From assembly GCF_054482525.1 (NCBI RefSeq), contig NZ_CM137006.1: 64,000 nucleotides of DNA; one strand, 5' to 3'. The position numbers were made by a program, and so were the translations under genes. Below are positions 7,397 to 42,617 of the stretch, piece after piece (positions within the stretch are counted from its first letter, which is position 1; the number at the start of each line of letters is the position of its first letter). The notes under the pieces are model-generated. The model had not been told where the DNA came from and searched no databases. It worked only from the letters and a program-made list of their open reading frames with translations.

Positions 7397-7430
7397 CCCC
7401 GCCAGCTATAATCGCGGGGCTTCGTTTTTC
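7397..7430 (+). terminator. Rho-independent terminator after ykgJ
   Basis: GC stem ccccgc...gcgggg followed by cttcgttttt. Confidence 0.5.
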
Positions 7431-7579
7431 AGGGATAACAAAACCCGAAACTTCTTCCATCTGCCAGCAACAATGCCTCTTCCTCTATAGTGTTCTCCGG
7501 ATCTACAGCATCCTGAAGTAGCGCGATGTACTCACTAGCTATCTGTTTCAGAAAGTAAAAAGCAATGTTTTTAACCTAT

Positions 7580-7612
7580 AAAAATGGCGCTGTATTTGCG
7601 CCATTTTTATTA
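7580..7612. terminator. Hairpin terminator downstream of yagU, probably bidirectional
   Basis: aaaaatggcgc-tgtatt-tgcgccattttt: perfect stem flanked by A-run and T-run. Confidence 0.5.
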
Positions 7613-7621
7613 TTCAATGCA

Positions 7622-18796: not shown

Positions 18797-18962
18797 ATTT
18801 TCAGAAATGGGAGGCTGGGAGTCTATCGAAATGGTTCGTCGATATGCTCACCTCGCGCCTAATCACCTTACCGAACACGCACGGCAAATAGACTCAGTCC
18901 TGAACCCATCGGTCCCAAATTTGTCCCAGTCAAAAAAAAAGGAAGGTACTAATTATGTGTAA
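18797..18962 (+). pseudogene. C-terminal fragment of a tyrosine integrase
   Basis: [28 protein letters not shown] matches the conserved integrase C-terminus (catalytic Tyr in RYAHL); only about 55 codons remain. Confidence 0.6.
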
Positions 18963-18970
18963 CTTATTGA

Positions 18971-18992
18971 TTTAAATGGTGCGATAATAGGA
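18971..18992. repeat. Distal att-like direct repeat (degenerate copy of tRNA-Thr 3' end)
   Basis: tttaaatggtgcgataatagga matches tttgaaatggtgccgataatagga at 42535..42558 with two single-base gaps. Confidence 0.5.
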
Positions 18993-19170
18993 ATATAACA
19001 CACCACATATATTCTTTGATAAATATGACTATTTTCTTGTTTCATCTTTATAAATGCCCCCTTTTGTGCCCCCACCTTGTTTTTCATGCGACTCGATGAG
19101 ACTTTCATCGAGTCGTTAATCTCATCAAATTCTTCACGTATCGTGGAAACCTTCGCAGATCTCCATCCCC

Positions 19171-21032: not shown

Positions 21033-22230
21033 TGATCCTACCCGCGTAATGTGGACACGCTCCTAAGCGAGATTCTGGTTTTCAAACTGTTTCGGGCTGA
21101 GGCCGCCATAATCGCTGTGACGCCGCCAGCGATTGTAATCGCACTTAATCCGCCGTCCGCATGATTTCCCGGCTGATAAAGCGTTCTCCGTGGATACACT
21201 CGACTTTTAACGAGTGTAAGAAGCTTTCCGCACAGGCATTATCATAACAGCAACCTTTTGCGCTCATGCTGCCATGCAGATTATGTCGTTTCAGCAGAGC
21301 CTGATAATCCGCTGAGCAGTACTGCCCGCCACGGTCGGTGTGAATTCGCCGCCACAGCGCCATCTGCAGTGCATCACAGGCAAGTTCTGCCGTTATTTGC
21401 GAGGACACCAACTAGCCAATAATAGCACGCGACCACCAGTCTATAACCACGGCAAAGTATAACAAGCTTTCATCGATGCGAAGGTACGTGATGTCACCAG
21501 CCCACTTCTGGTCCGAGCCACTAGATCTGAAGTCCTGCTTCAGCAGATTCTCCGGCACTGGCTGGTCGTGAGCACAGTAGATTAACGGGCTGAACAGACG
21601 TGAGGTTTTTGCCCGCAGGCCCTGACGACGCGAACTGTTGCTATCGTTTTGATGTTGTATTCCGGCGGCTCGTCTGCAAGACGAGCCGCACCATAACGCT
21701 GTTTTGCCTCAACGAATACCTTACAGACAGCTTCATTGAAGACGCACCGGAACTGTTGCCGATGGCTCAGTTGGGGACGACGCAGACACCAGGTATACCA
21801 GCAGCTGTGCGCCACGCACAGCACCCGACACATAGCTTTGATACTGAACTCAACCTGATATTTTTCGATAAAGATATACTTCATTTCAGGCGCTACGCGA
21901 AGTATGTCGCGCCCTTTTGGAGAATAGCCAACTCATTATCCCGCTCAGCCAGTTGACGTTTGAGGCAGGCAATCTCCGCTGCTTGTGCGCTCTCTCTCAG
22001 AGGATATTGTCTGGTGCAGTTGTTTGTAGAGCTGGGAATCGTAAAGGCTGAGTTCACGGGCGGTAGTGGCCACACCGAGACGTTCGGCCAACTTAAGGGC
22101 TTCTTCACGAAATTCAGGCGTGTGTTGTTTGCGTGACTTTTGTTGATTGATGCTGATTTTGTCATGTGAGCTACCTCTGATTGAGAGTTTACTCGCTTAG
22201 TCCCGTGTCCACTATTGGTGGGTAGGATCA
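21033..22230 (-). mobile_element. Degraded IS3-family insertion sequence (frameshifted orfA, interrupted orfB)
   Basis: Terminal inverted repeats tgatcctaccc (21033) and gggtaggatca (22220); ORFs 21893..22231, 21582..21884 and 21145..21411 match InsE C-terminus ([23 protein letters not shown]) and InsF N- and C-terminal parts, but not as continuous frames. Confidence 0.75.
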
Positions 22231-22579: not shown

Positions 22580-24313
22580 ATGTACATAGCAAAAATTAAA
22601 TTTACAAATTTCAAATCATTCAAAGAGATGTCTTTTGAGTGCAATGATAAATTCAACATAATTGTTGGTGAAAATAATATTGGTAAAAGCACATTATTTG
22701 AGGGGGTAAGTTTATGGAAATATGCTTATGACAACCTTATTCAAGAAAAAAACAAAAACAAATTCTACAAAGCTTCAACTAACTACTACATTACCTATTC
22801 TACACTCGATCAAATAAGACTTGTTGACGATATTGATATTTTTAACGACCCAAAGAATAGCTCCGCATCAATATGCATTACAATTAAAGATGAACAAAAT
22901 GAATTTGATTTAGAGATTAGATTTGAAAAGCCAGGGATTAAAAATTCATACTTACGGATATTTAATAGCAATGGTTCTGATAATGACACACAGTTTTCAA
23001 ACTTTGAACGATTCTCAAACTATATAAAAGAAAAGGATTGCACTCTAAAAGATGCCATTTACATTTACCAAACAAGACCAATATCAACTATTTTTAGAGA
23101 TGAGCCATTTTACAATAATGCGCAGATAGAGAAAAAAATAAATATTGGAAAGTCACATGATGTCTTAAGGAATAAAATATTAAAAACCGAAAATACTCAA
23201 GCCACAAGGGTTGCACAAAAATTTGAAAATCTTGAGATTCGCCTACAAAAAGTCCTTGGTGAAAACTATATCTTAAAATTTAAGAATAGAAATCGAATCG
23301 ATGATGAGTATGTTAAAATAACTGCAACAAAGGAAAACGGGAAAGAATTGGAAATATCACTTATGGGTAGTGGTTTTTTGCAAGTCTTAGAGATATTTTC
23401 AACAATTGAGTATATGGAAAAGAATTCAACCGGTATTAACCTCATTCTTATCGATGAGCCTGATTCACATATCCACTCAAATTTACAAGCAAATTTAATT
23501 GACGAACTAAAGCAACAAACAGCATGTCAAATTTTTGTCATAACACATAATGACAGACTAACATCAAAAGCTAATGAAGGTGAGCTTTTTTATCTAAATC
23601 AGATAGTTAAGGATCTTGGTTTATTGTCTCACCTTGAAATATCTGATTATTCAAAAGTTAAAGATGGTCTAGCTAATGTACTAACAGCTATAAATGATGG
23701 AGATGAAACACCCATTGTTATAACTGAAGGAAAAACGGACCAGAAAATTTTAACAACTGCTTGGGAAAAGCTAAACCCAGGAACTCCTATGCCTTTTAAA
23801 ATAATTTCATCCGGCATTCAAATTGAAGAGGAAAAAAGAACTGGGTGCGCAGAGGCAGTTAGAAGATCTTTAGAATACATTTCAACATTAACTGATAGAA
23901 CAATTATCGGTTTATTTGATAATGATCGGGAGGGAAATGAGCAGTTCAAAGGATTAAATCGTTCTATTTTTGAACCTCATGACCTGCAAAATAACTCCCG
24001 AAAACATCAGATAAAAAATATCTATGGGCTTATTCTTCCCGTTCCTGTGCATAGAGAACGTTTTGTACAAAACAATTCTTTAACGCAGCGTTACTTCGTA
24101 ATTGAACAATATTTCCAAGATGAAATATTACTACAGCATAACATGAAAGGTGAGTCAATATTAGGTACTGAGGTATTTTTTGTTAATGACTCAAGAAAGA
24201 ATGAGTTTTCAGAGTCAACCAATGACCTTCCGGTAGAATGCTTTGGGGATTTTAGTATTTTATTCGATAAAATTTCCGATTTATTGGCTAACAATAGACC
24301 AGAAAACACTTGA
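22580..24313 (+). CDS. OLD-family ATP-dependent endonuclease (ABC-type ATPase + C-terminal TOPRIM)
   Basis: Walker A GENNIGKST, Walker B/H-loop LILIDEPDSHIH, TOPRIM glutamate IVITEGKTD and DxD motif FDNDREG; 577 aa; strongly AT-rich codon usage. Confidence 0.7.
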   Translation: MYIAKIKFTNFKSFKEMSFECNDKFNIIVGENNIGKSTLFEGVSLWKYAYDNLIQEKNKNKFYKASTNYYITYSTLDQIRLVDDIDIFNDPKNSSASICITIKDEQNEFDLEIRFEKPGIKNSYLRIFNSNGSDNDTQFSNFERFSNYIKEKDCTLKDAIYIYQTRPISTIFRDEPFYNNAQIEKKINIGKSHDVLRNKILKTENTQATRVAQKFENLEIRLQKVLGENYILKFKNRNRIDDEYVKITATKENGKELEISLMGSGFLQVLEIFSTIEYMEKNSTGINLILIDEPDSHIHSNLQANLIDELKQQTACQIFVITHNDRLTSKANEGELFYLNQIVKDLGLLSHLEISDYSKVKDGLANVLTAINDGDETPIVITEGKTDQKILTTAWEKLNPGTPMPFKIISSGIQIEEEKRTGCAEAVRRSLEYISTLTDRTIIGLFDNDREGNEQFKGLNRSIFEPHDLQNNSRKHQIKNIYGLILPVPVHRERFVQNNSLTQRYFVIEQYFQDEILLQHNMKGESILGTEVFFVNDSRKNEFSESTNDLPVECFGDFSILFDKISDLLANNRPENT

Positions 24314-29431: not shown

Positions 29432-30490
29432 TCAGGAATGCGCCCTGACTTTTTCTGTTTTTACCATTAATCCGGCATACTCACGTTCAATAAGTGAGGA
29501 CATTAAATCTGACTCAGACTCACCATATATTTCTGACAGTCTGGCGAGTTTCTTTTTAGTTCTGGCTGAAATTTTTATTGTCATATCGTTCTCTTTAGAC
29601 TGTCTGCGAAACAGTTTCTGATCCCAGGCTTTTTGCAGTTCACCCATCAGGACTGCTTTATGTCGCAGGGGAGAGCGCGGAAGCGTCAGTAAATCAGCGA
29701 AGTTCTGACTCATTTTTTTTCGATTTCCCTTTAAATAACTCAGTTGCTCATGAGTCCAGCCCTCCCACTGATCAAAAGTAGCACAAATAAAAAGCCAGCG
29801 TTGATAGTTATTCAGCGGATTTATCGGAGGGCAAACCGCCTTCTTTTTCATCAGGTTCCATACCCACAAGCACTGTTTTTCATCATTGATATCCAGCCAT
29901 GAAAAAGCTTCAGGAAAGTCACCACAGGCCTGTCCCCATGCAGTATTTATTGCTTTTATTAGCTTGCGCCGGGTTTCAGTTTCTGCATCACAGAGTTCTC
30001 TTAATACACACTCAAAAACATCATCAACTCCAGTTGCCATTTCCCTCATGAATGGTGAGTAAATCCCATTGGCGTAATAAAAATCTGGCGGCATCATCTT
30101 TTTTGGAGTGGACATTTTACCCAGGGTTGATTTTTCAGAAGCTGATTCAAGGTTTGTGTTTAATATGTTTTCTAACAGCTCATCACCTTCATAACCCTTA
30201 CCTTCATTTGTTTGATTAAAATTAAATTCTGGCATCATTCCTGGAAGTGTTGCTGCTTTATTTTTTTCAATACTTAGCTCAATTGACTCCGTCCCCAGAG
30301 CCCTAGCAGATATCTGACTGGGTTCGTCTATATGATCCTGGCGAACAACTGCTGACCTCCACTCACTCAGAAAACGAGCAATATAGAAAAAATAGAAACA
30401 TGCGGCACGGGGATTTTTATCAAGCCACCTCAGCTTCTTTTTTAATAACTTGTATTTTTCTTGAGCGCCCAGCGCCTTCTCTTTGCTCAT
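29432..30490 (-). CDS. Hypothetical protein with C-terminal ribbon-helix-helix-like segment
   Basis: 352 aa; C-terminus MTIKISARTKKKLARLSEIYGESESDLMSSLIEREY looks like a CopG/RHH fold; no other recognisable motif. Confidence 0.45.
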   Translation of the reverse strand: MSKEKALGAQEKYKLLKKKLRWLDKNPRAACFYFFYIARFLSEWRSAVVRQDHIDEPSQISARALGTESIELSIEKNKAATLPGMMPEFNFNQTNEGKGYEGDELLENILNTNLESASEKSTLGKMSTPKKMMPPDFYYANGIYSPFMREMATGVDDVFECVLRELCDAETETRRKLIKAINTAWGQACGDFPEAFSWLDINDEKQCLWVWNLMKKKAVCPPINPLNNYQRWLFICATFDQWEGWTHEQLSYLKGNRKKMSQNFADLLTLPRSPLRHKAVLMGELQKAWDQKLFRRQSKENDMTIKISARTKKKLARLSEIYGESESDLMSSLIEREYAGLMVKTEKVRAHS

Positions 30491-31466
30491 TATTCACCCA
30501 GATTCAGTTTCCATTAATGATGTCATTATGATGTAAAACCATAGGCAATCAACAGGAAAAAATGTAATTTCAAGAGTGAGTAATGATGAATCAATGTATT
30601 TTTTTCGTAGTAGATTCGTAGTAAGATATCGCGTGGCAAAACACTAATTATCAACAGGTTGTAAGTGCTCCCTTCCTCAGACTACCATTACCAATATGGG
30701 ACTGCAGTATGAAGACCCTGGCATGTGAAGTTAAACAACAACGACATGACATTCGTGATGTTGCCATGCGTTGGGGAGTGCAAATCAAACGACCTGCGTC
30801 ATTCCTTCATCAGGATTTCTGCTACCCTGATAGGGTCAGCACCTCCGCACACTTCGTGACAATCGCAACATCAGATGACACCCGATGCGATTGCTGATAT
30901 CGCATTCGTGTTGTTTTCGATAATTAAGGTTAATTAATAATATAGTGCATAGTGCCTGCCCTTTCTCATCCATGCCCCATTTTACCCTTGGACCGTGTTT
31001 CAACATATTTACATTCAGTACCTGTTTCTCCACGCGCTATCTTCCCTGCAAAAAAAAACAGTACCAGGCAATCCTTTGAGCAAAAACCAAAGGATTACTG
31101 AAATACAAAAACACTACCCATCTTTCCAGAATATTATCCCTGATGATTGCCTTCTCAACATGATTAATCACCACCTTAATCAGATGCTGGAACGTTACTC
31201 AAAGATTCTGGCTTTTCGCATGGACTTCAGTTACCGGAAAGGAATCAATAGGTATATCCGTAATTCCGCCCTTGAAATATAGGATGTTCTTCGCGAGTTA
31301 ATGCCATCCATTTTAACCAAAGATGCGTCTGTGGCTGTTTTTGGGCGTTAGAATGGACAAGAGAAGGTGCAGTGCACTCACATGCCATTTTTTATATCAA
31401 TGGACAAAATCATAAGAAATCATTCCCTTTTGTACTGGAGGCAAAAAGCATGTGGTTAAAAATCTC

Positions 31467-31490
31467 GAAGGAAGAAGGAAGAAGGAAGAA
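31467..31490. repeat. Tandem hexamer repeat (gaagga x4)
   Basis: gaaggaagaaggaagaaggaagaa read directly, in the non-coding region upstream of alpA. Confidence 0.6.
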
Positions 31491-31783
31491 TAAAATGGTG
31501 TCCGGCGGATAGTTATCACAGGGATACTATAAACAGAATAGTGGAATAAAAAAATGAGGTTGATGTGCAGAGTTTGAGACGGATAGCCAGCTATCAGACA
31601 AAAGAAGACCAGAAATATGGATTACCAATATGGGGATACAACGAAATTAATTTGCCCGCCAGACAGGGCAGACCGAGGAAGTTTAGTTAGTTTTTTACAG
31701 CAGCACCGGTTGCTATGCCGGAGTGGGTAGTAGTAATTCATCACTGGACTCCGGTACTTATTTAGCTACCGGAGAATCAAATC

Positions 31784-31996
31784 ATGACCAGTAAACCTTC
31801 CTTGTCCGAAGACCAGTTCGTTGATATGGCTTTTATCACCCGCCTGCTGGGGGTCAGCGATAAATGGATTTACCGACTCATTAAGGATGGCATATTTCCA
31901 AAACCCATCAAACTGGGACGAAGCTCCCGCTGGTTACAAAGCGAAGTCGAAGCCTGGCTGCAGGCCCGTATTGATGCATCCCGCCCTCAACACTAA
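31784..31996 (+). CDS. alpA: AlpA-family phage regulatory protein / excisionase-like
   Basis: 70 aa; VDMAFITRLLGVSDKWIYRLIKDGIFPKPIKLGRSSRW is the classic AlpA HTH. Confidence 0.8.
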   Translation: MTSKPSLSEDQFVDMAFITRLLGVSDKWIYRLIKDGIFPKPIKLGRSSRWLQSEVEAWLQARIDASRPQH

Positions 31997-32097
31997 ACCC
32001 TTTCCCGTTCGTTAACAAACAAGTGCGCCATCTCATATCCGCTCCTTGCGGAGGCTTACGTCTGCATGTCAGTTACTCATTAAAGGAATATCAGAAA

Positions 32098-32630
32098 TGA
32101 ACAATTCACCCTTACTCAACCATTACCAGGCCTGGCTGGATGATTTTACCCGCGTCAGTCTGTTCCACGGTTTATGCCAGAAGCACATCTCGCAGTGGCA
32201 CAGGCTGGCGATAACCGCCTGCCCGATGCCAGGCAGTAGCGTAACAGAAGTCGTCATTCCACAGTGTCTGCTGCCGGTTACCCGCACCAGTCGACTGGGA
32301 TCATGTACTGTCGCCCCCGGTCTGACTAAACACATCGATTATGCCCTTCTGCCCGGTGTGCTGCTCAGCGAATGTTATCGACTGGGGAAAAGTCGGCTGG
32401 CAGACCAGTTACAGATGTTATTCCGGCTTAATGTACAGTCCGGTATGCGCCAGGCGCTGATCCTGCTGTGCTGGTGTGAGCTGGCAACAGGTAAGGATAT
32501 GGAGGAATGGTATGCGCTGCATCTGCCACTGCCTGACACGCTGACGCAATGGTTGGCAGTAAAACAGCGGGCATACCGGGGACTGAAGACGCTGACTGAC
32601 GGTTACATTCGTGCCACCCAGCCGATGTGA
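32098..32630 (+). CDS. Hypothetical protein
   Basis: ORF with start trimmed to MNNSPLLNHY; no recognisable domain; operonic with alpA. Confidence 0.4.
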
Positions 32631-32640
32631 GGGACGGATA

Positions 32641-33024
32641 ATGCTGATACCAAAATGCTATATTGCACAGCGTAAAACCGGTGAGATTTTCGCTGTCAGC
32701 CAACTGAATTCAGGCGATGAAGAGTGGTTCTGCCATCACTGCCAGTGCCCGTTGATTTTCCATTCCCCCACCATAACGTCACCGCCCTGGTTCGAACACG
32801 ACATACTTCAGGGACAACCAGAAGCACTGTTGCAATGCCCCTATCTGGCCCCCGTCAATGCAAAGCCTTCAGCGGTGGCTAAGCTACAGCGCCTTCTGGC
32901 ACAACTCCCACCGGTCATCACGACCACACAATGGCAATGTACCATGTGCGGCCTGTCATATTGCGGCGAGAAGTGCTGCCCTCAATGTAGAAAAGGGATA
33001 TATAGTCGGGAGATACGAATTTAG
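32641..33024 (+). CDS. Cys-rich putative zinc-ribbon protein
   Basis: CHHCQC and CTMCG...CCPQC cysteine pairs; 127 aa. Confidence 0.4.
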   Translation: MLIPKCYIAQRKTGEIFAVSQLNSGDEEWFCHHCQCPLIFHSPTITSPPWFEHDILQGQPEALLQCPYLAPVNAKPSAVAKLQRLLAQLPPVITTTQWQCTMCGLSYCGEKCCPQCRKGIYSREIRI

Positions 33025-33351
33025 TGATACGTACCAGGCAATCATGGGATTGATTGGTACACCAGAAAGTTATTATATGGGGGCATATAACTTCGGAGTA
33101 AAAATCAATCACTTTCTATCATCCGGCCCCTGGTGCTTGTGGATTCGTAATTCATAAACCATGACGGGTTGGTAATATTAATTAACCAACTGATATATAA
33201 ACAATATTATCTCATTGTCACGCTCATATACGGTTACTCATACACGACAGCCTTAATTGCTGGCATCACCCTTTAAATCCTTAATCCCTTTAACAGCCCA
33301 TTGCGGGTAAGGCTTTGCCCTGCCCGTAATTTATTACCCAAGGAAAATTAT

Positions 33352-33963
33352 ATGTTTGACAATATCTGTCTCGATAGACGGCATGCACCATTCAACACCA
33401 CTTACCTACAGCGTATTCTACGCGTTATAGATAACGCGACTGCAGAGCATGCACGGACGATGGCAGTTCGGGTAGACCTGCGTCTTCCTGACAATATGCT
33501 CATTAACCGACAGGGCCTGATATCTCGTTTCATTGAATCCCTTGATGCAAAGATTGCAGCGCGCTACAGAAGTAAGTTGAAGCAGGGTAAACGAACATAT
33601 CCATGCCACCTTCGCGATGCCTGGGTTCGGGAGGTGGGTGAGATTAATCAGAAATCGCATTACCACATGGTGTTGTTCGTGAATAACGATACATTCAATG
33701 GGCTGGGGAGTTACAAAGAAGATGGGACGGGCCTGGCGTCCTTGATACGAGAGGCCTGGCTGAGTGCTTTACAGCTTAGTCACCGCCCAGAGCACTGGAC
33801 GCTAGCCCACTATCCCGATAATCCACTTTATTTTCTGGATATTAATTCCGCTGGCTACAAAGAGTCTTATGACCAACTGACGTTTCGGTTAAGTTATTTT
33901 GCGAAGGAACGCACCAAAGATTACAACAGGGAGGAACGTTCATTCGGATGTAGCCAGGGCTGA
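33352..33963 (+). CDS. YagK/YfjJ-family (inovirus Gp2-like) protein
   Basis: Start trimmed to MFDNICLD; resembles CP4-57 YfjJ / CP4-6 YagK. Confidence 0.55.
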   Translation: MFDNICLDRRHAPFNTTYLQRILRVIDNATAEHARTMAVRVDLRLPDNMLINRQGLISRFIESLDAKIAARYRSKLKQGKRTYPCHLRDAWVREVGEINQKSHYHMVLFVNNDTFNGLGSYKEDGTGLASLIREAWLSALQLSHRPEHWTLAHYPDNPLYFLDINSAGYKESYDQLTFRLSYFAKERTKDYNREERSFGCSQG

Positions 33964-34753
33964 ATTCGGTACATCGTTTTGCTGGTGGCACTATATTTGC
34001 GCCACAACGCCATAGTGTGTCAACCACACCGCTATTCCCCTCACAATACCGTTAAACCATTCAACCACATGGCGTCAGTCTGCCCATCAAGGGCGGCTTA
34101 CACCTGCTTGCAGAAGTCGGATTATATTTGACGCCAACGACGGTAATAGTCGTTTGACGAGCGCCAGAACGGTACAGAAAGATATATAGTATCGTAGGCA
34201 GGCTTGATACCCCTGTTATCGTGCAGTCTTGGCACTGCGCTTGGTTCGGATACCATTACTAGGGCAAAAAGCACTGTGTGGTCTGTGGTATCGGGAAATA
34301 TAGCACGGAAGAATCAAACTGGCTGATGAATGACACCAGAGCGCCTGCGTGAGGTCCACCGTATTTCCTCCAACCAACACAGAGAAAAAATCATAATGAG
34401 CTACCACCAGTTAATCATCACAAATACAAAGTCGGCGGACAGTGCACGCATTCACCACGTATTACAGCAACCCGGATGGTTTCGAAATACAATTGGCAGC
34501 GTTGAAAGAGGTTGCATTGCAAATGGTTTTTTCAGTGATGACTGCCTGCAGTGACCTGTTTAAATGATCACTGTCACGTTATCTGGATTGCGCAGTTGCT
34601 TGGGTTGCAGTATGTCTCATCTTAGACTGTGTTGATGTTATTGTTGAGATCAGCACTCCGGCAGATGGCCAAATTCAGTAAACCACTTCAAAAGGCACAT
34701 TTATGCAACCTCATCAGCGGTGACCCGTAAAAATTGCAAATTAAGGAGCAATA

Positions 34754-36853
34754 ATGAACCGAGAGCAAGCCCAACAACTGCTGCAGACTGCTTTGGCTAA
34801 CCCTGCTGCTGAATTTCGTGATGGTCAGTGGGAAGCCATTGATGCATTGGTTAATCGTCGTCAGAAACTACTGGTTGTACAGCGTACCGGCTGGGGTAAG
34901 AGCTCGGTTTATTTTATTAGTACTAAAATCTTCCGTGACCGCGAGATGGGGCCTACGATTATTGTATCGCCACTGCTTGCATTAATGCGTAACCAGATTG
35001 ATTCAGCGCAGCGTTTGGGAATAGTTGCCGAAACAATGAATTCGGCTAATAGGGAGGATTGGCAGGCTGTAACTCAACGAATTCTCAATAACCAAATAGA
35101 CTGTTTGCTCATTTCCCCAGAGCGGCTAGCAAATGATACCTTTATTGAGACGGTCCTTCAGCCCATTGCCGATCGAATCGCCCTAATGGTAATTGACGAA
35201 GCACACTGTATTTCAGATTGGGGTCATGATTTTCGTCCTGATTATCGCCGTATCGTAAATATCCTTCGTCAATTGCCCGCCAACACCCCAGTACTAGGTA
35301 CGACTGCAACTGCCAATAACCGAGTTGTTGACGATATCCAAGCCCAGCTTGGGGATATACAAATCCACCGAGGTCCTCTTACTCGCGAAAGCCTCGCTCT
35401 GCATACAATGTCTTTACCCGATCAGGCATCTCGTTTAGCTTGGCTCGCCCAAGTTATTCCGATGCTACATGGAACAGGCATTATTTACGCATTAACAGTT
35501 CGTGATGCCGAGCAGGTGGCAGAATGGTTGAGCATGCACGGTATAGTTGCCATGGCATACCACGGTAGCATCGAGGCTGAAGGTTTTGAGAACAGCAATG
35601 CTTACCGTCAGTACTTAGAAGAATTGTTACTTAACAACCAGCTTAAGGTTTTAGTAGCAACGACCGCGTTGGGTATGGGTTATGATAAACCTGATTTAAG
35701 TTTTGTAATCCATTACCAAGCTCCGAGTTCAATTGTTGCATACTACCAGCAGGTGGGTCGGGCTGGGCGCGGTATTGCTCATGCAACAGGTGTACTGATG
35801 TCGGGGATAGAAGATAACGACATCCATGATTTTTTCCGTGATTCTGCATTTCCATCGGAGGATCAAGTTAACGATATTCTTCGAGTGTTGGAAAATAATG
35901 ATGGTCTATCACTCCGCAACATCGAGGAAAAAACTAACCTACGCCACGGCCAGATTGAGAAAGTACTTAAGTTACTGAGTGTAGAAAATCCAGCCCCCAT
36001 CATTAAAAATGAAAATCGTTGGGTTAGGACCACAGTTCGCTATCAAATGGATCATGCCCGAATTGCTCATTTGACAGGACAACGTATTCAGGAATGGGAA
36101 GAGGTTCAAGCGTACCTTACCGACACTGGATGCAAAATGGCATTTCTACGTCGTTCTCTGGACGATCTCGACCCAACTCCATGTGGTAAATGCTCGTCCT
36201 GTATTGGTCAACCAATTATAAATCAAATCATTGACCCTGCTTTGGTACATCGTGCAGGGACTTTCCTAAAACATGCAGAAATGCCGATTACTCCAAAAGC
36301 TCAGGTAGCAGCTAATGCTTTTTTGCAATATGGCTTCAGCGGCAATTTGCCACAGCAGATTAGAGCACAAGAAGGTCGAGTGTTGTCTCGCTGGGGAGAT
36401 GCTGGTTGGGGACGGTTAGTAGCCGATAATAAACGTGCAGATCACTTTGATGATGAGCTAGTGGTTGCTATGGCCGAGATGATTCAGCAGCGTTGGCAAC
36501 CGAATCCAGCGCCACAATGGGTATGCTGTGTACCTTCACGCAATCATGTACAATTAGTCCCTGATTTCGCTCGCCGCTTGGCGGCATGTTTGAGGTTGCC
36601 TTTTTTCAATGCCATCAGCAAGGTTAGAGATAACCAACCTCAAAAGGGGCAACAAAACCGTTTCCATCAATGCCGCAATCTGGACGGTGCTTTTGAGATA
36701 AATCAACCTCTACCTAACACACCGGTTCTACTTGTAGATGACATTGTAGATTCAGGCTGGACGTTAACTGTCATCGCAGCACTCCTACAACGCGCAGGTA
36801 GTGGTAAAGTATACCCTGTTGCACTTGCTTCATCTTCGGTAAAAGACTCATGA
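34754..36853 (+). CDS. RecQ-family helicase fused to a C-terminal phosphoribosyltransferase-like domain (PsyrT-like)
   Basis: Helicase motifs GWGKS (I), DEAH (II), TATA (III), QQVGRAGR (VI); C-terminal type-I PRTase motif VLLVDDIVDSGWTLT. Confidence 0.8.
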   Translation: MNREQAQQLLQTALANPAAEFRDGQWEAIDALVNRRQKLLVVQRTGWGKSSVYFISTKIFRDREMGPTIIVSPLLALMRNQIDSAQRLGIVAETMNSANREDWQAVTQRILNNQIDCLLISPERLANDTFIETVLQPIADRIALMVIDEAHCISDWGHDFRPDYRRIVNILRQLPANTPVLGTTATANNRVVDDIQAQLGDIQIHRGPLTRESLALHTMSLPDQASRLAWLAQVIPMLHGTGIIYALTVRDAEQVAEWLSMHGIVAMAYHGSIEAEGFENSNAYRQYLEELLLNNQLKVLVATTALGMGYDKPDLSFVIHYQAPSSIVAYYQQVGRAGRGIAHATGVLMSGIEDNDIHDFFRDSAFPSEDQVNDILRVLENNDGLSLRNIEEKTNLRHGQIEKVLKLLSVENPAPIIKNENRWVRTTVRYQMDHARIAHLTGQRIQEWEEVQAYLTDTGCKMAFLRRSLDDLDPTPCGKCSSCIGQPIINQIIDPALVHRAGTFLKHAEMPITPKAQVAANAFLQYGFSGNLPQQIRAQEGRVLSRWGDAGWGRLVADNKRADHFDDELVVAMAEMIQQRWQPNPAPQWVCCVPSRNHVQLVPDFARRLAACLRLPFFNAISKVRDNQPQKGQQNRFHQCRNLDGAFEINQPLPNTPVLLVDDIVDSGWTLTVIAALLQRAGSGKVYPVALASSSVKDS

Positions 36854-38175
36854 ATGTATCTAACTTATTGTCAAAAACAGCCCAGGCGACCTTACTTCTG
36901 ACTAGTTATTTTTCTAAAGCAACTAGCGAAAACGCCAAACCACTTTCCAACGCCGAATGGGGACGTTTTGCGCTATGGTTGAAAGAAAAAGCAGTTACGC
37001 CAGCTGACTTGTTGGACTCTGATCCTCAAACCTTACTGAATGGCTGGTACGACTCCCGTATCAGTACGGATCGGATCATTGAGTTGATGAATCGAGGACA
37101 TAGCCTCGCTTTGGCTATGGAGAAATGGCAACGGGCAGGCTTGTGGGTAGTGACACGTTCTGATCCAGAATATCCATGGAGATTAAAACATCGGCTTAAA
37201 ACAGACTCTCCCCCTGTTTTATTTGGCTGTGGCAATAAAGCCTTATTAAATAGAGGGGGATTGGCTGTCATTGGTTCTCGAAATGCCAATGCATCAGACC
37301 TTACTTTTACTGATCACATCGGCGTTAAAGCTGCGGACGAAAATATAGCTGTTGTATCTGGTGCTGCACGTGGAGTAGACGAAACAGCCATGTTAGGTGC
37401 AATGAGGCAAGGTGGAGTTGTAATCGGGATTTTGGCAGATAGCCTGTTAAAAGCTGCGACTAGTGCCAAATGGCGCAAGGGGCTTATGAATGACCATGTT
37501 GTGCTAATATCCCCTTTTTACCCTGAGGCTGGTTTCTATGCGGGAAATGCCATGGCTCGCAATAAATATATCTATTGCTTGTCGGATAGTGCATTGGTTA
37601 TTCATTCTGGTCGAAAAGGTGGAACAATTAGTGGGGCAGAGGAAAATCTTAAGAAAGGATGGGTGCCACTATGGGTCAATCCAACAACCGATCTAGATTC
37701 AGCTAATGCTGACTTAGTGAGCAAAGGGGGACATTGGTTGCCAAGTGATAGTAATGGCCTATCCATCGAGAATTTGCTTAAAAATAATGACAGATCAAAA
37801 ATGCAGTTAAAAGCAGAGCCCCAAGATCTTTTTTCAGAATTGTCGCATCCAGAATTAATTATTGGATCTGCAGAGAAATCGTCAACTCAAGCTCTCGAAA
37901 AAGATTGGACTGCTACTATTAATGAAGAAACTCCCAACCTAATAACTACGGAAAAAAAATTAGAGGAAAAAGAGTTAGATGTAAATCCTATAGACTTTTA
38001 TCTGCTATTCAGGACAGAATTACAGCGATTGGCCGAACATCCAATTACAGTAGATAGGTTGACAGAAGTCACTGGGTTGAATAAATCGCAAGTGCTTGAT
38101 TGGTTGAAACGTGCTGAACAAGATGGTTTGGTAAAAAAACTAAACCGTCCTACAAGATATCAATTAAATGAGTAG
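36850..38175 (+). CDS. DprA/Smf-like Rossmann-fold protein with C-terminal winged helix (PsyrA/ShosA-like)
   Basis: DprA core LAVIGSRNA...VVSGAARGVDETAMLGA...GGTI; ATGA start/stop overlap with the upstream helicase gene. Confidence 0.75.
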   Translation: MNVSNLLSKTAQATLLLTSYFSKATSENAKPLSNAEWGRFALWLKEKAVTPADLLDSDPQTLLNGWYDSRISTDRIIELMNRGHSLALAMEKWQRAGLWVVTRSDPEYPWRLKHRLKTDSPPVLFGCGNKALLNRGGLAVIGSRNANASDLTFTDHIGVKAADENIAVVSGAARGVDETAMLGAMRQGGVVIGILADSLLKAATSAKWRKGLMNDHVVLISPFYPEAGFYAGNAMARNKYIYCLSDSALVIHSGRKGGTISGAEENLKKGWVPLWVNPTTDLDSANADLVSKGGHWLPSDSNGLSIENLLKNNDRSKMQLKAEPQDLFSELSHPELIIGSAEKSSTQALEKDWTATINEETPNLITTEKKLEEKELDVNPIDFYLLFRTELQRLAEHPITVDRLTEVTGLNKSQVLDWLKRAEQDGLVKKLNRPTRYQLNE

Positions 38176-38356: not shown

Positions 38357-39346
38357 TTATGTCTTTCTTTCAAGTGCAACTCCTAGATCCGCTGCCATTT
38401 TTTGGATTAGCCTCCAATCTAGCGGCCATTCTTTTTCTAAAGTAGATCTCCGTCTTTTGATTAACCAGTAAACGAAAATAACAACGCTTTGTTCAAAGAA
38501 ACTACTCCCTTCTTTGCCATCCTGAATTAGTAGTTCGAGCTCAGGAGTCTCTTCTATAAATTGATGTAATCTTTCTATCGTATCGGGTTTGATCACTTCT
38601 TTAAATGTATCTAGAATTAATAAAGTCGATTTTTGATTGTTTGGTTTATTCTTTGTTAAAGCTATGTAGATATTATCTAAAGTTCGCTGAATTCCTGCGT
38701 AACCATCAGATGCTGCGTTAATTGCTTTCGATACTGAACAGAAAAAATCATCCGTAGTTTCTATTAACGCCATGCTTTTTGCTACAGTTCTATGTATATC
38801 TGGTTCAACTATAGTTTTTGCTTTATATATGGCATCATGAGTTAACTCGGCATAGGCATGTTGTAATAAAGATCTAACCTGTATCTCACATGGAATGCCT
38901 TGTTCAATGATAACTCCATTATAATCAAAGGATTCTTTTGCAGTTACTATAAAATGTACGGATTGATACGTGAAAATTAATGGTGTATTTAATCTTTCTT
39001 CTTCGTAGTGTCTTGATGTCTTATAATGCCATTTATTACTACTTTTTATTATTTCACATATTTCATCTATATCTGAAGTAAGTAAAACGACAAACCTGAT
39101 GCCAACTTTATCTTCAATCTCTTGGTAGGGGTTTTTGTATGATTTTTCTTTTCGATGAAAAGCTTTATCGATTAGAGATGTCTTTTCTTTTATTCTCGGT
39201 GTCGCAGGTTGCTTGAGAAAGCTATTGAGGTCCCGCTCTTTATTTTCTGAGAGTTCTTTGCAAATATTTGAGACGACAAAATCTCCCCATGCTTTATACA
39301 TGGGTAGTTCTTTTTCCCAAAGTTGCGAAAACTCTAATTCATTCAT
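38357..39346 (-). CDS. RelA/SpoT-fold nucleotidyltransferase (toxSAS-like)
   Basis: Synthetase-domain signature PRIKEKTSLIDKAFHRKE, GIRFVV, YQSVHFIV and CEIQVRSLLQHAYAELTHDAIYK (EIQIRT..QHxWAE..H..YK); AT-rich. Confidence 0.7.
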   Translation of the reverse strand: MNELEFSQLWEKELPMYKAWGDFVVSNICKELSENKERDLNSFLKQPATPRIKEKTSLIDKAFHRKEKSYKNPYQEIEDKVGIRFVVLLTSDIDEICEIIKSSNKWHYKTSRHYEEERLNTPLIFTYQSVHFIVTAKESFDYNGVIIEQGIPCEIQVRSLLQHAYAELTHDAIYKAKTIVEPDIHRTVAKSMALIETTDDFFCSVSKAINAASDGYAGIQRTLDNIYIALTKNKPNNQKSTLLILDTFKEVIKPDTIERLHQFIEETPELELLIQDGKEGSSFFEQSVVIFVYWLIKRRRSTLEKEWPLDWRLIQKMAADLGVALERKT

Positions 39347-39354
39347 TAATTAGC

Positions 39355-40446
39355 TCATTCCTGAAGGGTTATCTTGTCCTTGATGAGGATTGTTGTCCAC
39401 TCAGCAGGTTTACCATCTTTATCGAGTTCACCTATAGTAGATTCAATTACAATATGGCTTTTAAAAACTTCCGCAGGGGCTGTGATTTTTATATTTTTAC
39501 TAAAGTTAAGCTTTCTTGTTTTTAATTTGCTTTCAATATGCTCGTTGTCTCTTGTGAAAGAGGTTTGTGGTATACCAGATTCATGAGCATACTCAAGATA
39601 AAGATCCTTAATACTATCATCAAAAAATCTTTCAGCATAATCTTTAGCTGAAATTACATCCGATTTTTCATGTTTAAGATATGTAACTAATGCATTTTTA
39701 AGCACATTTTTCTTTTCCTCGCTGACATCCAATTCATTAAGAAATTCACTCGTTTTTTCATAGAAATTCTTTGTTGTGCGGGCACTTGTTTCTGGGTAAC
39801 CGCAACCTAAAAAATTTTGATAAAAATATTGTGCTGCAGCTTTACCATCCGACTTACTGATTTGATAGTCAGAAATCATCACATCCCAAGATTTATTAAG
39901 ATCAGTATTATCAAGAGAATTGGTTGATTGGAAAAAACCGGCAGTTTTATAAAGTTTTGTGGATGGTGTAAGTAATATTTCTTCAACGAATTTTAATGAT
40001 ATTTGGCCCGTTTTATCGTCGATTACTTTTTCATATGCACTATAAATATCAGCCTTGATAATTCCAATGAATTTTCTTTTATTTACACCATAGTCGCCAG
40101 AAAAGATTACTACAATTCCGCCTGGAATTGCTCGTCTTGTCTGCGCATCTGCCAGTTTATTAGCTATTGTGTAAGTCTCATCAATATAATCCTCTCCCTC
40201 TTTATCAATTAAAGTTGTAGCAATATAAGGAACATAATCTTTTCCATGCTCCTTTATTTGCATTTTTACGGCTTTAGAACCATCACCTAAAGCGTCGATT
40301 ACTCGTGATTTAAAACCTTGCAAGGCATCAGCATCAAATTTTATAAATGAAGAACCTCTTGTTGGTTCTATTTTGTTTCCTTCTTCGTCGCGCTGATGAA
40401 TTTGGTGGATAATTATTTTGTTAATATTCATTTTGCTGATATTCAT
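39355..40446 (-). CDS. NA37-family nucleoid-associated protein homolog (YejK/NdpA-like)
   Basis: Similarity along the whole length to remembered YejK: N-terminus INKIIIHQIHQRDE vs INQIALHQLIKRDE, and central and C-terminal blocks; AT-rich. Confidence 0.65.
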   Translation of the reverse strand: MNISKMNINKIIIHQIHQRDEEGNKIEPTRGSSFIKFDADALQGFKSRVIDALGDGSKAVKMQIKEHGKDYVPYIATTLIDKEGEDYIDETYTIANKLADAQTRRAIPGGIVVIFSGDYGVNKRKFIGIIKADIYSAYEKVIDDKTGQISLKFVEEILLTPSTKLYKTAGFFQSTNSLDNTDLNKSWDVMISDYQISKSDGKAAAQYFYQNFLGCGYPETSARTTKNFYEKTSEFLNELDVSEEKKNVLKNALVTYLKHEKSDVISAKDYAERFFDDSIKDLYLEYAHESGIPQTSFTRDNEHIESKLKTRKLNFSKNIKITAPAEVFKSHIVIESTIGELDKDGKPAEWTTILIKDKITLQE

Positions 40447-40463
40447 TTCTGTGTAGTTCCATC

Positions 40464-40931
40464 TTATTGATTATCTGATTTTATATTTTTGCTTTCAATA
40501 TATTCTTTGTGAATATTATTCCATTCTTGACTGTCTTTTTCCCAAATAGATTTATATTCATCAAAAAGACTATCAATATCTGACTGGGTTACATCTTCTT
40601 TGGATTTTAAGTAATTAACTTTGTTTCTAAGTTGATACATGGCTAGCAAAGTAGCTTTTTGCCTAAACCATAATTTTTGATAATCAAATCTTGCAGTCCA
40701 CCCACTAACTAGAGTAAGACAGGCACTCACAATAAGAGCAGAATTTTTCTGTATTTTTTCATATCCAGATAAATCGAAGGCTAATATCAGTGTAGTAATA
40801 GTGCTCAAAAATATAGTCATGAAAAAAAATATTTTTAATTTTTTTTTATTCCATTTCGCCTTGCACTTTATTATGTTGATACTTTTATGGATTTCATCCA
40901 GTAAAAACTGTTGAGAAGATGTTATAGACAA
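40464..40931 (-). CDS. Small 2-TM membrane protein, SLATT-like
   Basis: Two hydrophobic helices (FFFMTIFLSTITTLILAF, ALIVSACLTLVSGW) followed by a charged helical tail; first gene of the three-gene operon. Confidence 0.5.
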   Translation of the reverse strand: MSITSSQQFLLDEIHKSINIIKCKAKWNKKKLKIFFFMTIFLSTITTLILAFDLSGYEKIQKNSALIVSACLTLVSGWTARFDYQKLWFRQKATLLAMYQLRNKVNYLKSKEDVTQSDIDSLFDEYKSIWEKDSQEWNNIHKEYIESKNIKSDNQ

Positions 40932-41175: not shown

Positions 41176-42378
41176 TTACACTACCGCATGTAAGATTCTA
41201 CGTACAGAGTGTAGATCAATCAAATAGTCTGAATACCACTGCATCATCTCTCTTCGCCCCTCCAGATATTGCGCATGGTTGTACGTCCCACGAATCGCAT
41301 TCTTATCGACATGCGCAAGCTGGGTTTCAATCCATGCCGTGTTGAACCCTTCCTCGTGCAAAATCGTACTCATCGTGTGACGGAAACTATGCCCCGTTAC
41401 CTTCCCCGTATACCCAATCCGTTTGAATACCTGATTAATACTCGCTTCACTCATCGTTTTACGTGGATCATTGCGCCCTGGGAACACCAAAGGATATTGC
41501 CCGGACATTACTTTGAGCTGTTGTACGATTTCTAGCGCTTGGGTAGAGAGGGGTACAAGATGGGGCCGTTTCATCTTCATACGCTCTGCAGGTATTTCCC
41601 ACACCGCTTTCTCAAGATCAAACTCACTCCAGAAAGCACCTCGAAGCTCGCCAGTACGAACTCCCGTAAGGATAAGCAGACGAGCGGCAAGAACAACTAA
41701 CGGGCTTCCTGTATAACCTGCGAGAGCTTTAAAGAAGTCTGGTAACTCCTCTACTGACAGGAAGGGATAATGCTTCGATTCATGCCCTGACATCGCGCTG
41801 GTTAGGTCCGCTGCAGGATTGTATTCCGCGCGACCTGTAACGATGGCATAACGAAAGACTTCGCTGCAGCGCTGGCGAACCTTCTTGGCCTTCTCTGTCG
41901 CGCCACGGCTTTCGATTCGACGCAGCACATTAAGCAGAACCAGCGGTTTGATTTCATTCACTGGCAGTTGGCCGATATAGGGGAAAATATCTTTATTGAA
42001 GGCTTCGATAATATCGGAGGCATAGCCTTCTGACCACCGGCTCACCTTAGTACCGTGCCACTCAAGCGCCACAGACTGGAACGTGTTGTTGAGCTGCACA
42101 TCGCGAACCAGCTTTTCTTCTTTCTTTGCGAAAGACGGGTCGATACCCTCGGCCAGCTTTTTCTTGGCTTCATCACGCAGAGCCCTCGCTTGTGCAAGGG
42201 AAACAGCCGGATAGACCCCAAAAGCCATACGCTTCTCTTTTCCATTGAAGCGATATTTCATTCGCCAGTATCGAGAACCAGAGGGAACGACTTCAAGATA
42301 CAAGCCAGCACCATCTGCCAGCTTATAGGCTTTCTCTTTGGGTTTAGCAGCGTCTACCTGTCGCGCATTAAGCTTCAT
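41176..42378 (-). CDS. P4-type tyrosine integrase
   Basis: Start trimmed to MKLNARQV; catalytic motifs GVRTGELRG, HSFRHT, LAHVD..RGTYNH; immediately adjacent to the tRNA-Thr 3' end. Confidence 0.85.
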   Translation of the reverse strand: MKLNARQVDAAKPKEKAYKLADGAGLYLEVVPSGSRYWRMKYRFNGKEKRMAFGVYPAVSLAQARALRDEAKKKLAEGIDPSFAKKEEKLVRDVQLNNTFQSVALEWHGTKVSRWSEGYASDIIEAFNKDIFPYIGQLPVNEIKPLVLLNVLRRIESRGATEKAKKVRQRCSEVFRYAIVTGRAEYNPAADLTSAMSGHESKHYPFLSVEELPDFFKALAGYTGSPLVVLAARLLILTGVRTGELRGAFWSEFDLEKAVWEIPAERMKMKRPHLVPLSTQALEIVQQLKVMSGQYPLVFPGRNDPRKTMSEASINQVFKRIGYTGKVTGHSFRHTMSTILHEEGFNTAWIETQLAHVDKNAIRGTYNHAQYLEGRREMMQWYSDYLIDLHSVRRILHAVV

Positions 42379-42534: not shown

Positions 42535-42558
42535 TTTGAAATGGTGCCGATAATAGGA
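42535..42558. repeat. Proximal att-like repeat overlapping the tRNA-Thr 3' end
   Basis: tttgaaatggtgccgataatagga; partner at 18971..18992. Confidence 0.5.
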
Positions 42559-42617
42559 GTCGAACCTACGACCTTCGCATTACGAATGCGCTGCTCTACC
42601 AACTGAGCTATATCGGC
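42542..42617 (-). tRNA. thrW: tRNA-Thr (anticodon CGU)
   Basis: Reverse complement reads GCCGATATAGCTCAGTTGGTAGAGCAGCGCATTCGTAATGCG...TTCGACTCC...CACCA: cloverleaf arms, CGT anticodon in the loop, encoded CCA. Confidence 0.85.

Follow-up and report, generated by a model that had tools for sequence, protein, structure and literature searches.

Do the genes that directly follow alpA in an integrative island belong to the island's own life cycle or to the cargo that it carries, and what might their products do? The question is raised by a block of three genes in a stretch of DNA of 64,000 nucleotides (the window; contig NZ_CM137006.1 of RefSeq assembly GCF_054482525.1). The window is 100% identical to the chromosome of Escherichia coli SCU-102 (NZ_CP051753.1), from which the PGAP/RefSeq gene annotation was taken, and positions in our locus record L001 become window positions on addition of 11699. 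A first reading of the letters (hereafter the original prediction) had described a hypothetical protein, a Cys-rich zinc-ribbon protein and a YfjJ-like protein behind alpA on the plus strand, and the RefSeq annotation agrees on all three genes. The limits given for the block were 32098-33963; the end is exact, and the start falls one base past the ATG at 32097. Our preferred reading, to which we give a probability of roughly 0.4, is that the block is an alpA-linked core module of a CP4-57/CP4-6-type integrative island and not cargo, with genes that serve the island's life cycle and a zinc protein (ZnR) that acts as DNA-binding partner of the HUH-type, YfjJ-like protein. The three genes are ordinary for this class of island: they belong to catalogued families of unknown function in a familiar type of element.

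Conserved linkage of the block

The string is headed by an AlpA-like helix-turn-helix (HTH) protein of 70 residues (31784-31996, plus strand). It matches the Pfam models Phage_AlpA (PF05930; E 1.2e-9, 38.3 bits against a cut-off of 21) and HTH_17 (E 1.3e-9), as well as PHROG 66, 'excisionase and transcriptional regulator' (E 8.5e-13). The element bears an integrase, and AlpA is predicted to regulate excision and transcription. On the same strand follow Hyp177 (32097-32630), annotated by RefSeq/PGAP as a hypothetical protein of 177 residues; ZnR (32641-33024), a protein of 127 residues that RefSeq calls a 'putative zinc ribbon protein'; and a YagK/YfjJ-type protein of 203 residues (33352-33963), here termed Gp2 type A and named 'inovirus Gp2 family protein' in RefSeq. 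The ZnR start codon lies 10 nt past the Hyp177 stop and is preceded by a Shine-Dalgarno-like sequence, GAGGGA. The genes probably form an operon.

The surroundings of ZnR were compared in a census of 20 non-redundant loci. Some come from E. coli genomes and from a scan in which each species was represented by one genome, others from large IncHI1B and IncF plasmids and from contigs of metagenomes and isolates, whose ZnR copies go down to 22-27% identity. The loci span six Enterobacterales families. The close-alignment scan returned 4 loci from 100,044 species genomes; the diverse ZnR alignments held no sufficiently conserved stretch of 7-10 residues. Every one of the 20 loci has a Gp2/YagK/YfjJ-like gene on the ZnR strand, one or two genes away at most, and this gene usually retains the HUH and YxxK motifs described below. 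Co-occurrence with alpA, proposed as a check by the original prediction, is borne out: of the 18 loci with sufficient flanking sequence, 16 have alpA upstream of ZnR and in the same orientation. The layout also recurs at larger scale, with a divergent yfjH-like gene, then on one strand Gp2, alpA, one to three of Hyp177 and ZnR and often a further Gp2 and ZnR, and then variable cargo, which in the window is located between the Gp2 gene and the integrase. Linkage conserved in this way speaks for core genes that serve the life cycle of the island itself, and against cargo.

ZnR and Gp2 genes also multiply together. The order is alpA-Gp2-ZnR-psiZnR-Gp2-ZnR-ZnR in locus L019, ZnR-Gp2-ZnR in L018 and Gp2-alpA-ZnR-ZnR-Gp2 in L015. 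Three old clades, alpha, beta and gamma, can be told apart among the ZnR paralogues, and identity from one clade to another is 22-40%. The only copy in the window belongs to the beta clade. Where one locus holds two intact copies (L005, L015, L016, L018, L019 and L024), these always come from different clades, alpha with beta or alpha with gamma, as would be expected of partner subunits.

All four genes, alpA included, are under purifying selection. Values of dN/dS (the ratio of nonsynonymous to synonymous substitution rates) are 0.05-0.29 in 15 of 16 comparisons with orthologues from Hafnia, Yersinia, Buttiauxella, Photorhabdus and other E. coli, with AlpA at 0.05-0.21; the outlier, at 0.57, is Hyp177 against a very close Hafnia copy. 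The gene order of the block recurs in Hafnia, Buttiauxella, Photorhabdus and Citrobacter and is broken by an insertion in Yersinia. The original prediction had been staked on conservation of these reading frames in related islands, and conservation is what selection and repeated gene order reveal. The same results make it highly improbable that the block genes are without function, mere remains of a cryptic element in decay. Signs of decay do exist, in that L002 and L014, two related loci, have a frameshift in ZnR, a Gp2 pseudogene adjoins alpA in the window, and the exact block is rare, occurring in 1 of 5,426 complete E. coli genomes (the alpA-Hyp177-ZnR segment is found at 86% identity in 4 further genomes). 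The reading frames of the window are nevertheless intact, purifying selection extends across genera, the metal ligands of ZnR described below are invariant down to 22% identity, and synteny is kept across the six families.

The zinc protein and its proposed Gp2-type partner

ZnR is composed of two Pfam domains in tandem, DUF7828 (residues 5-86; 65.8 bits, cut-off 25.7) and Zn_ribbon_11 (residues 94-125; 42 bits, cut-off 24), and both are present in 40 of 40 relatives. The original prediction was therefore right to describe a Cys-rich zinc-ribbon protein, and the motifs that it quoted are in place, with CHHCQC at residues 31-36, CTMC at 100-103 and CCPQC at 112-116. Its statement that the protein has no obvious family does not stand, since both domains score above curated cut-offs and the protein was already named in RefSeq. 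Eight residues are invariant in the 40 full-length relatives, down to 22% identity: C31, C34, H53 and C66 in the first domain, and C100, C103, C113 and C116 in the second. This invariance indicates two metal sites and not chance cysteines. By its ligand pattern, ZnR is predicted to bind zinc at an N-terminal C2HC site and a C-terminal C4 zinc-ribbon site.

The family is small and confined in its known range. An exhaustive HMMER search of 1.84 billion representative proteins returned 114 clusters, whose named members are all from Enterobacterales (Enterobacteriaceae, Morganellaceae, Yersiniaceae, Hafniaceae, Pectobacteriaceae and Erwiniaceae). At E<=1 the window protein matches DUF7828, Zn_ribbon_11 and Zn_ribbon_6 and no other Pfam model. 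The CoiA_N zinc finger, which the window protein does not match at E<=1, is matched by 14 of the 40 relatives (best E 2.4e-7), and the CoiA nuclease model is absent from the 25 Pfam families most often matched by them. Membership of the CoiA family was considered and rejected, as ZnR is without the PD-(D/E)xK nuclease domain (PF06054) and its 127 residues are fully taken up by the two zinc modules. There is also a weak resemblance to RPB9 (E 1.9e-4 in a PDB profile search; Pfam Zn_ribbon_RPB9 in 2 of the 40 relatives). We rejected an RPB9-type factor as well: the match is put down to the spacing of cysteines in the ribbon, and a structure search gave no RPB9 similarity.

Hyp177 belongs to a helical orphan family of 55 clusters in a profile search, the named ones again all from Enterobacterales. 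It has no match in Pfam, NCBIfam, PHROGs or PADLOC, even at E<=1. Database names of its relatives, 'secretoglobin family protein' in many Enterobacterales and 'malate transporter' in Salmonella, were rejected as annotation carry-over, Pfam being empty at E<=1.

The original prediction had further remarked that small metal-binding proteins of islands can be regulators or anti-defence factors. We found no specific support for either role: ZnR has no match in PADLOC, PHROGs or NCBIfam, and its linkage is to alpA and the Gp2/YfjJ-like genes, not to the antirestriction arm of the islands. An anti-defence version of this idea would make ZnR and Hyp177 products expressed early after island entry or induction that block host immunity or exploit a helper phage. 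Several features would suit it. Genes of the kind usual in establishment regions, namely antirestriction (ArdB/KlcA-type), RadC and DUF932 genes, occur in the same islands, the module is present on large conjugative plasmids, phage transduction moves related Pseudomonas islands, and the ZnR family is small, taxonomically restricted, very divergent between clades and often represented by several paralogues. However, neither Hyp177, ZnR nor the YfjJ-like protein has a PADLOC match at E<=1e-3, there is no PHROGs match, and ZnR occurs in none of 50,697 phage records. The genes also stand with alpA and Gp2, whereas the antirestriction arm is encoded on the other strand. Selection on them is purifying and of an ordinary kind (dN/dS about 0.1-0.2), not diversifying, and the metal ligands are invariant. 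We regard an anti-defence role as improbable.

The third gene was predicted to be YfjJ-like, and its product matches YagK_YfjJ_C (PF11726, formerly Inovirus_Gp2) with 162.8 bits against a cut-off of 25.8 (E 9.3e-48). It has an intact HUH motif (HYH, in KSHYHMVLFVN) followed by a YxxK motif (SYFAK, in LSYFAKERTK). Three kinds of Gp2-like protein occur in the loci: type A (YagK/YfjJ), type B ('inovirus-type Gp2', with both motifs) and a degenerate type C. The HxH and S-Y-x-x-K motifs are kept in type A and type B proteins, K-12 YfjJ included. The model of rolling-circle initiators, REP_ORF2-G2P, scores 19.5 bits against the window protein, below the cut-off of 27.8 (E 1.2e-3), and is matched by 10 of 14 relatives (best E 7e-7). 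A search by sequence found no relative of the YfjJ-like protein in the PDB. In the literature searched, YfjJ/YagK and inovirus Gp2 appear as genome-annotation mentions, apart from one study of Pseudomonas islands that is considered at the end of this text.

Together these features suggest how the module could work. AlpA, as a predicted excision-directionality and transcription factor, would head a same-strand string of Hyp177, ZnR and Gp2/YfjJ that runs up to the variable cargo. Once the island has been excised, the YfjJ-like protein, a putative HUH-type nickase-like protein for single-stranded DNA, may nick it, so that rolling-circle replication begins or the DNA is processed for transfer. 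Catalytic domains are missing from ZnR, which with its CoiA_N-like C2HC finger and C4 ribbon could bind nucleic acid and in this way assist the HUH protein or lend it specificity. Hyp177 may be one more helper, specific to certain lineages, that is encoded at this point of the string. A bolder version holds that the ZnR clades, Hyp177 and the Gp2/YfjJ HUH proteins make up an undescribed, Enterobacterales-specific machine for the replication or transferability of excised defence islands that encode an integrase only, in which the zinc proteins are interchangeable specificity subunits that aim the HUH nickase at the island origin or at the DNA of a helper element. We consider this extension unlikely.

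Several points weigh against a core module in which ZnR partners the HUH protein. All census loci were retrieved via ZnR or Hyp177, so the census is biased towards this context, and the adjacency of genes is by itself no proof of physical or functional partnership. A Salmonella locus (L023) has Hyp177 and no ZnR, and the K-12 islands have YfjJ/YagK and no ZnR, which shows that ZnR is dispensable for Gp2 proteins in general. The type C Gp2 paralogues that adjoin ZnR have neither motif, so catalysis is not required in every pairing of ZnR and Gp2. The HUH activity of YagK/YfjJ proteins is itself predicted from motifs and from Pfam matches that range from sub-threshold to moderate. Structure prediction, the other check suggested at the outset, did yield an AlphaFold2 model of ZnR, but of moderate quality (predicted local distance difference test, 68.5) and with no informative structural neighbour found. 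Finally, the members of the block's families are without experimental support, and the literature searched contains no mention of DUF3279, DUF7828 or PF11682.

The spacer and the remainder of the island

ZnR and the Gp2(A) gene are separated by a conserved non-coding spacer of 327 bp (33025-33351, plus strand). Its identity across five genera is 85-95%, compared with 74-79% at the 4-fold degenerate sites of the adjacent gene (in 3 of 4 comparisons), and this excess indicates that the spacer is under constraint. It contains an invariant AT-rich palindrome, GGTTGGTAATATTAATTAACCAAC (33167-33190), which overlaps a promoter-like site (33182-33210) that on its own is not above chance. A hairpin with one compensatory pair lies just before the ribosome-binding site, at about 33296-33326. 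The overall fold of the spacer is not better than that of shuffled sequence (z -1.4) and shows almost no covariation, and no Rfam family was matched in the block, spacer included. A 37-codon open reading frame in the spacer (33044-33157) was rejected as a gene, its frame being broken by single-base indels in relatives. A repeat scan of 30400-34800 found short repeats at chance level and nothing more.

A second element that resembles the spacer palindrome, TTAATTAATA, is located at 30925-30942, upstream of the Gp2 pseudogene. The two elements are candidate operators or nick sites. As operators they would suit a different account of the block, in which ZnR and possibly Hyp177 are small transcription factors under AlpA control that switch island promoters (those of Gp2 genes, int or cargo) on or off independently of the HUH protein. 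In most loci ZnR stands immediately downstream of the regulator gene; it has two zinc ribbons with a helical linker between them and weak matches to RPB9 profiles; and the AT-rich palindromes, one of them in the constrained spacer, overlap promoter-like sites upstream of both Gp2-type genes of the window. We think it unlikely that ZnR is such a factor. The RPB9 likeness is the one ascribed above to ribbon spacing, and ZnR and Gp2 genes are paired in all census loci.

The Gp2 pseudogene (31127-31678, plus strand) is a degraded type B gene that lies between the yfjH-like gene and alpA. It was found by tblastn with the Gp2(B) proteins of L003 and L002 (E 7e-16 and 1e-13) in one frame with several in-frame stops, and intact Gp2-like copies occupy this position in L003, L011, L013 and L024. 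The pseudogene fills most of an otherwise unannotated gap of 1.3 kb upstream of alpA.

On the far side of the alpA control region, a YfjH-like gene of 352 residues (29432-30490, minus strand) is the first of a yfjP/yfjQ-type arm, and it has the same position in 13 of the 16 non-redundant loci with upstream flank. The C-terminus of its product has a ribbon-helix-helix-like stretch and a weak match to the BfmA/BtgA mobilisation domain (NF041200, E 0.029), and a relative in L010 has a weak RepB-RCR_reg match. These matches are hints of a relaxosome- or Rep-regulator-like role. The arm is transcribed divergently from alpA and encodes, after the YfjH-like protein, a YfjP-type GTPase, a DUF932 protein, a DeoR-type regulator, RadC, a DUF987 protein and a YeeU/CbtA toxin-antitoxin pair. 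It is interrupted, at 22580-24313 (plus strand) and 21063-22165 (minus strand), by an 'ATP-dependent nuclease' gene that lies between pseudogenes of IS3-family and other transposases, and this stretch is probably additional, inserted cargo.

The island as a whole measures about 23.6 kb and sits at a tRNA-Thr gene. It is bounded by an imperfect direct repeat (21-22 nt) of the tRNA-Thr 3' end, AAATGGTGC(C)GATAATAGGA, at 18974-18994 and 42539-42560, and the tyrosine integrase annotated by RefSeq (41176-42378, minus strand) adjoins the tRNA gene. A tyrosine integrase at a tRNA gene, flanking direct repeats and a yfjP/yfjQ/radC/cbtA arm are the features that identify an island of the CP4-57/CP4-6 type, and all of them are present. 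Just beyond the left repeat lies a C-terminal integrase fragment (18803-18961) that is probably left over from an earlier element at the site. Far outside the island, at 7416-7616 on the minus strand, there is a match to the Rfam IS009 RNA (186 bits).

The cargo begins directly after the block with a PsyrTA (RqlHI-type) defence/toxin-antitoxin pair recognised by PADLOC (34754-38175, plus strand). PsyrT is a RecQ-family helicase fused to a phosphoribosyltransferase (PRTase) domain (699 residues; PADLOC E 0), and PsyrA is a DprA/SLOG-like protein (441 residues; PADLOC E 7e-170) with a start that overlaps the stop of the helicase gene. A trio on the minus strand (38357-40931), placed between this pair and the integrase, encodes a RelA/SpoT-like 'GTP pyrophosphokinase', an NA37-type nucleoid-associated protein and a SLATT-domain protein. 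The trio matched no PADLOC system and gave weak matches to the PDC-S33 and 2TM effectors alone; it may be an uncharacterised defence set. Across the relatives the defence cargo is usually recognisable and includes PsyrTA, Dpd, type I restriction-modification, a Gabija-like OLD/UvrD pair and Mrr.

Comparison with known proteins and islands

Small proteins with one or two Cys4 zinc modules are encoded by mobile elements (Ogr/Delta of P2/P4) or attached to RNA polymerase (RPB9/TFS), and they serve here as a lead only. For the 40 ZnR relatives, the 25 Pfam families with the most frequent matches do not include Ogr_Delta. RPB9 and TFS have double C4 ribbons, whereas the first ZnR site is C2HC, and structural similarity is unsupported. 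CoiA offers a parallel for the N-terminal domain. A preprint describes it as a putative zinc finger attached to a PD-(D/E)xK nuclease that resolves recombination D-loops (bioRxiv 10.1101/2024.02.06.579203). Its N-terminal finger (CoiA_N) and the DUF7828 domain of ZnR have a CxxC...H...C signature in common, and this kinship counts in favour of the core-module reading. Unlike CoiA, ZnR has neither the nuclease nor the CoiA C-domain, ends in a C4 ribbon, and is found in Enterobacterales islands and not in competence regulons. The YfjJ-like protein is comparable to the rolling-circle Rep proteins of small single-stranded DNA phages (REP_ORF2-G2P, HUH), with HxH and then YxxK in the usual order. 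It differs from them in its score below the Pfam threshold and in its context, which is not that of a phage genome; the conserved palindrome of the upstream spacer is a candidate for its nick site.

Among islands, the tmRNA (transfer-messenger RNA) islands I23, I44 and I55 of Pseudomonas have a likely core of IntY, AlpA, RadC and an inovirus Gp2-like protein, with variable defence cargo between the integrase and the conserved region (bioRxiv 10.1101/2024.08.29.610337). They do not encode transfer machinery of their own, and their transfer by jumbo-phage transduction has been demonstrated (10.1101/2024.08.29.610337). They belong to another host order than the window island, and the word 'zinc' appears nowhere in the main text of that study (10.1101/2024.08.29.610337). 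Islands of the type described here are major carriers of anti-phage defence in Enterobacterales and encode no conjugation or packaging genes. The string of alpA, Gp2 and ZnR/Hyp177 is their most constant feature beside the cargo site, and the role of an HUH-like protein with a zinc partner would clarify the mobility of this whole class of defence islands. The invariable pairing of ZnR and Gp2 is the lead that can be reused elsewhere.

The closest known elements, besides these Pseudomonas islands, are the K-12 cryptic prophages CP4-57 (intA-yfjH-alpA-yfjI-yfjJ ... yfjP-yfjQ ... and a cbtA-type toxin) and CP4-6 (at thrW). Like the window island, they have an integrase at a tRNA or tmRNA site and a divergent yfjH-like gene, then alpA followed on the same strand by YfjJ/YagK, and then defence cargo, which is AbpAB and RnlAB in K-12 and PsyrTA in the window. 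They also share the arm of GTPase, DUF932, DeoR-type regulator, RadC, DUF987 and YeeU/CbtA genes; an antirestriction gene that stands in the arm of CP4-57 and of several relatives is not annotated in the window. The integrase lies beyond the cargo in the window island and next to alpA in K-12. Homologues of ZnR and Hyp177 are found in neither CP4-57 nor CP4-6, which may explain the lack of data. In CP4-57, the slot between alpA and yfjJ is instead filled by yfjI, which encodes a DUF3987 protein. DUF3987 is a helicase-like domain of P4-type primase-helicases, and yfjI thus suggests that the slot held by Hyp177 and ZnR in the window is used for DNA-metabolism functions elsewhere.

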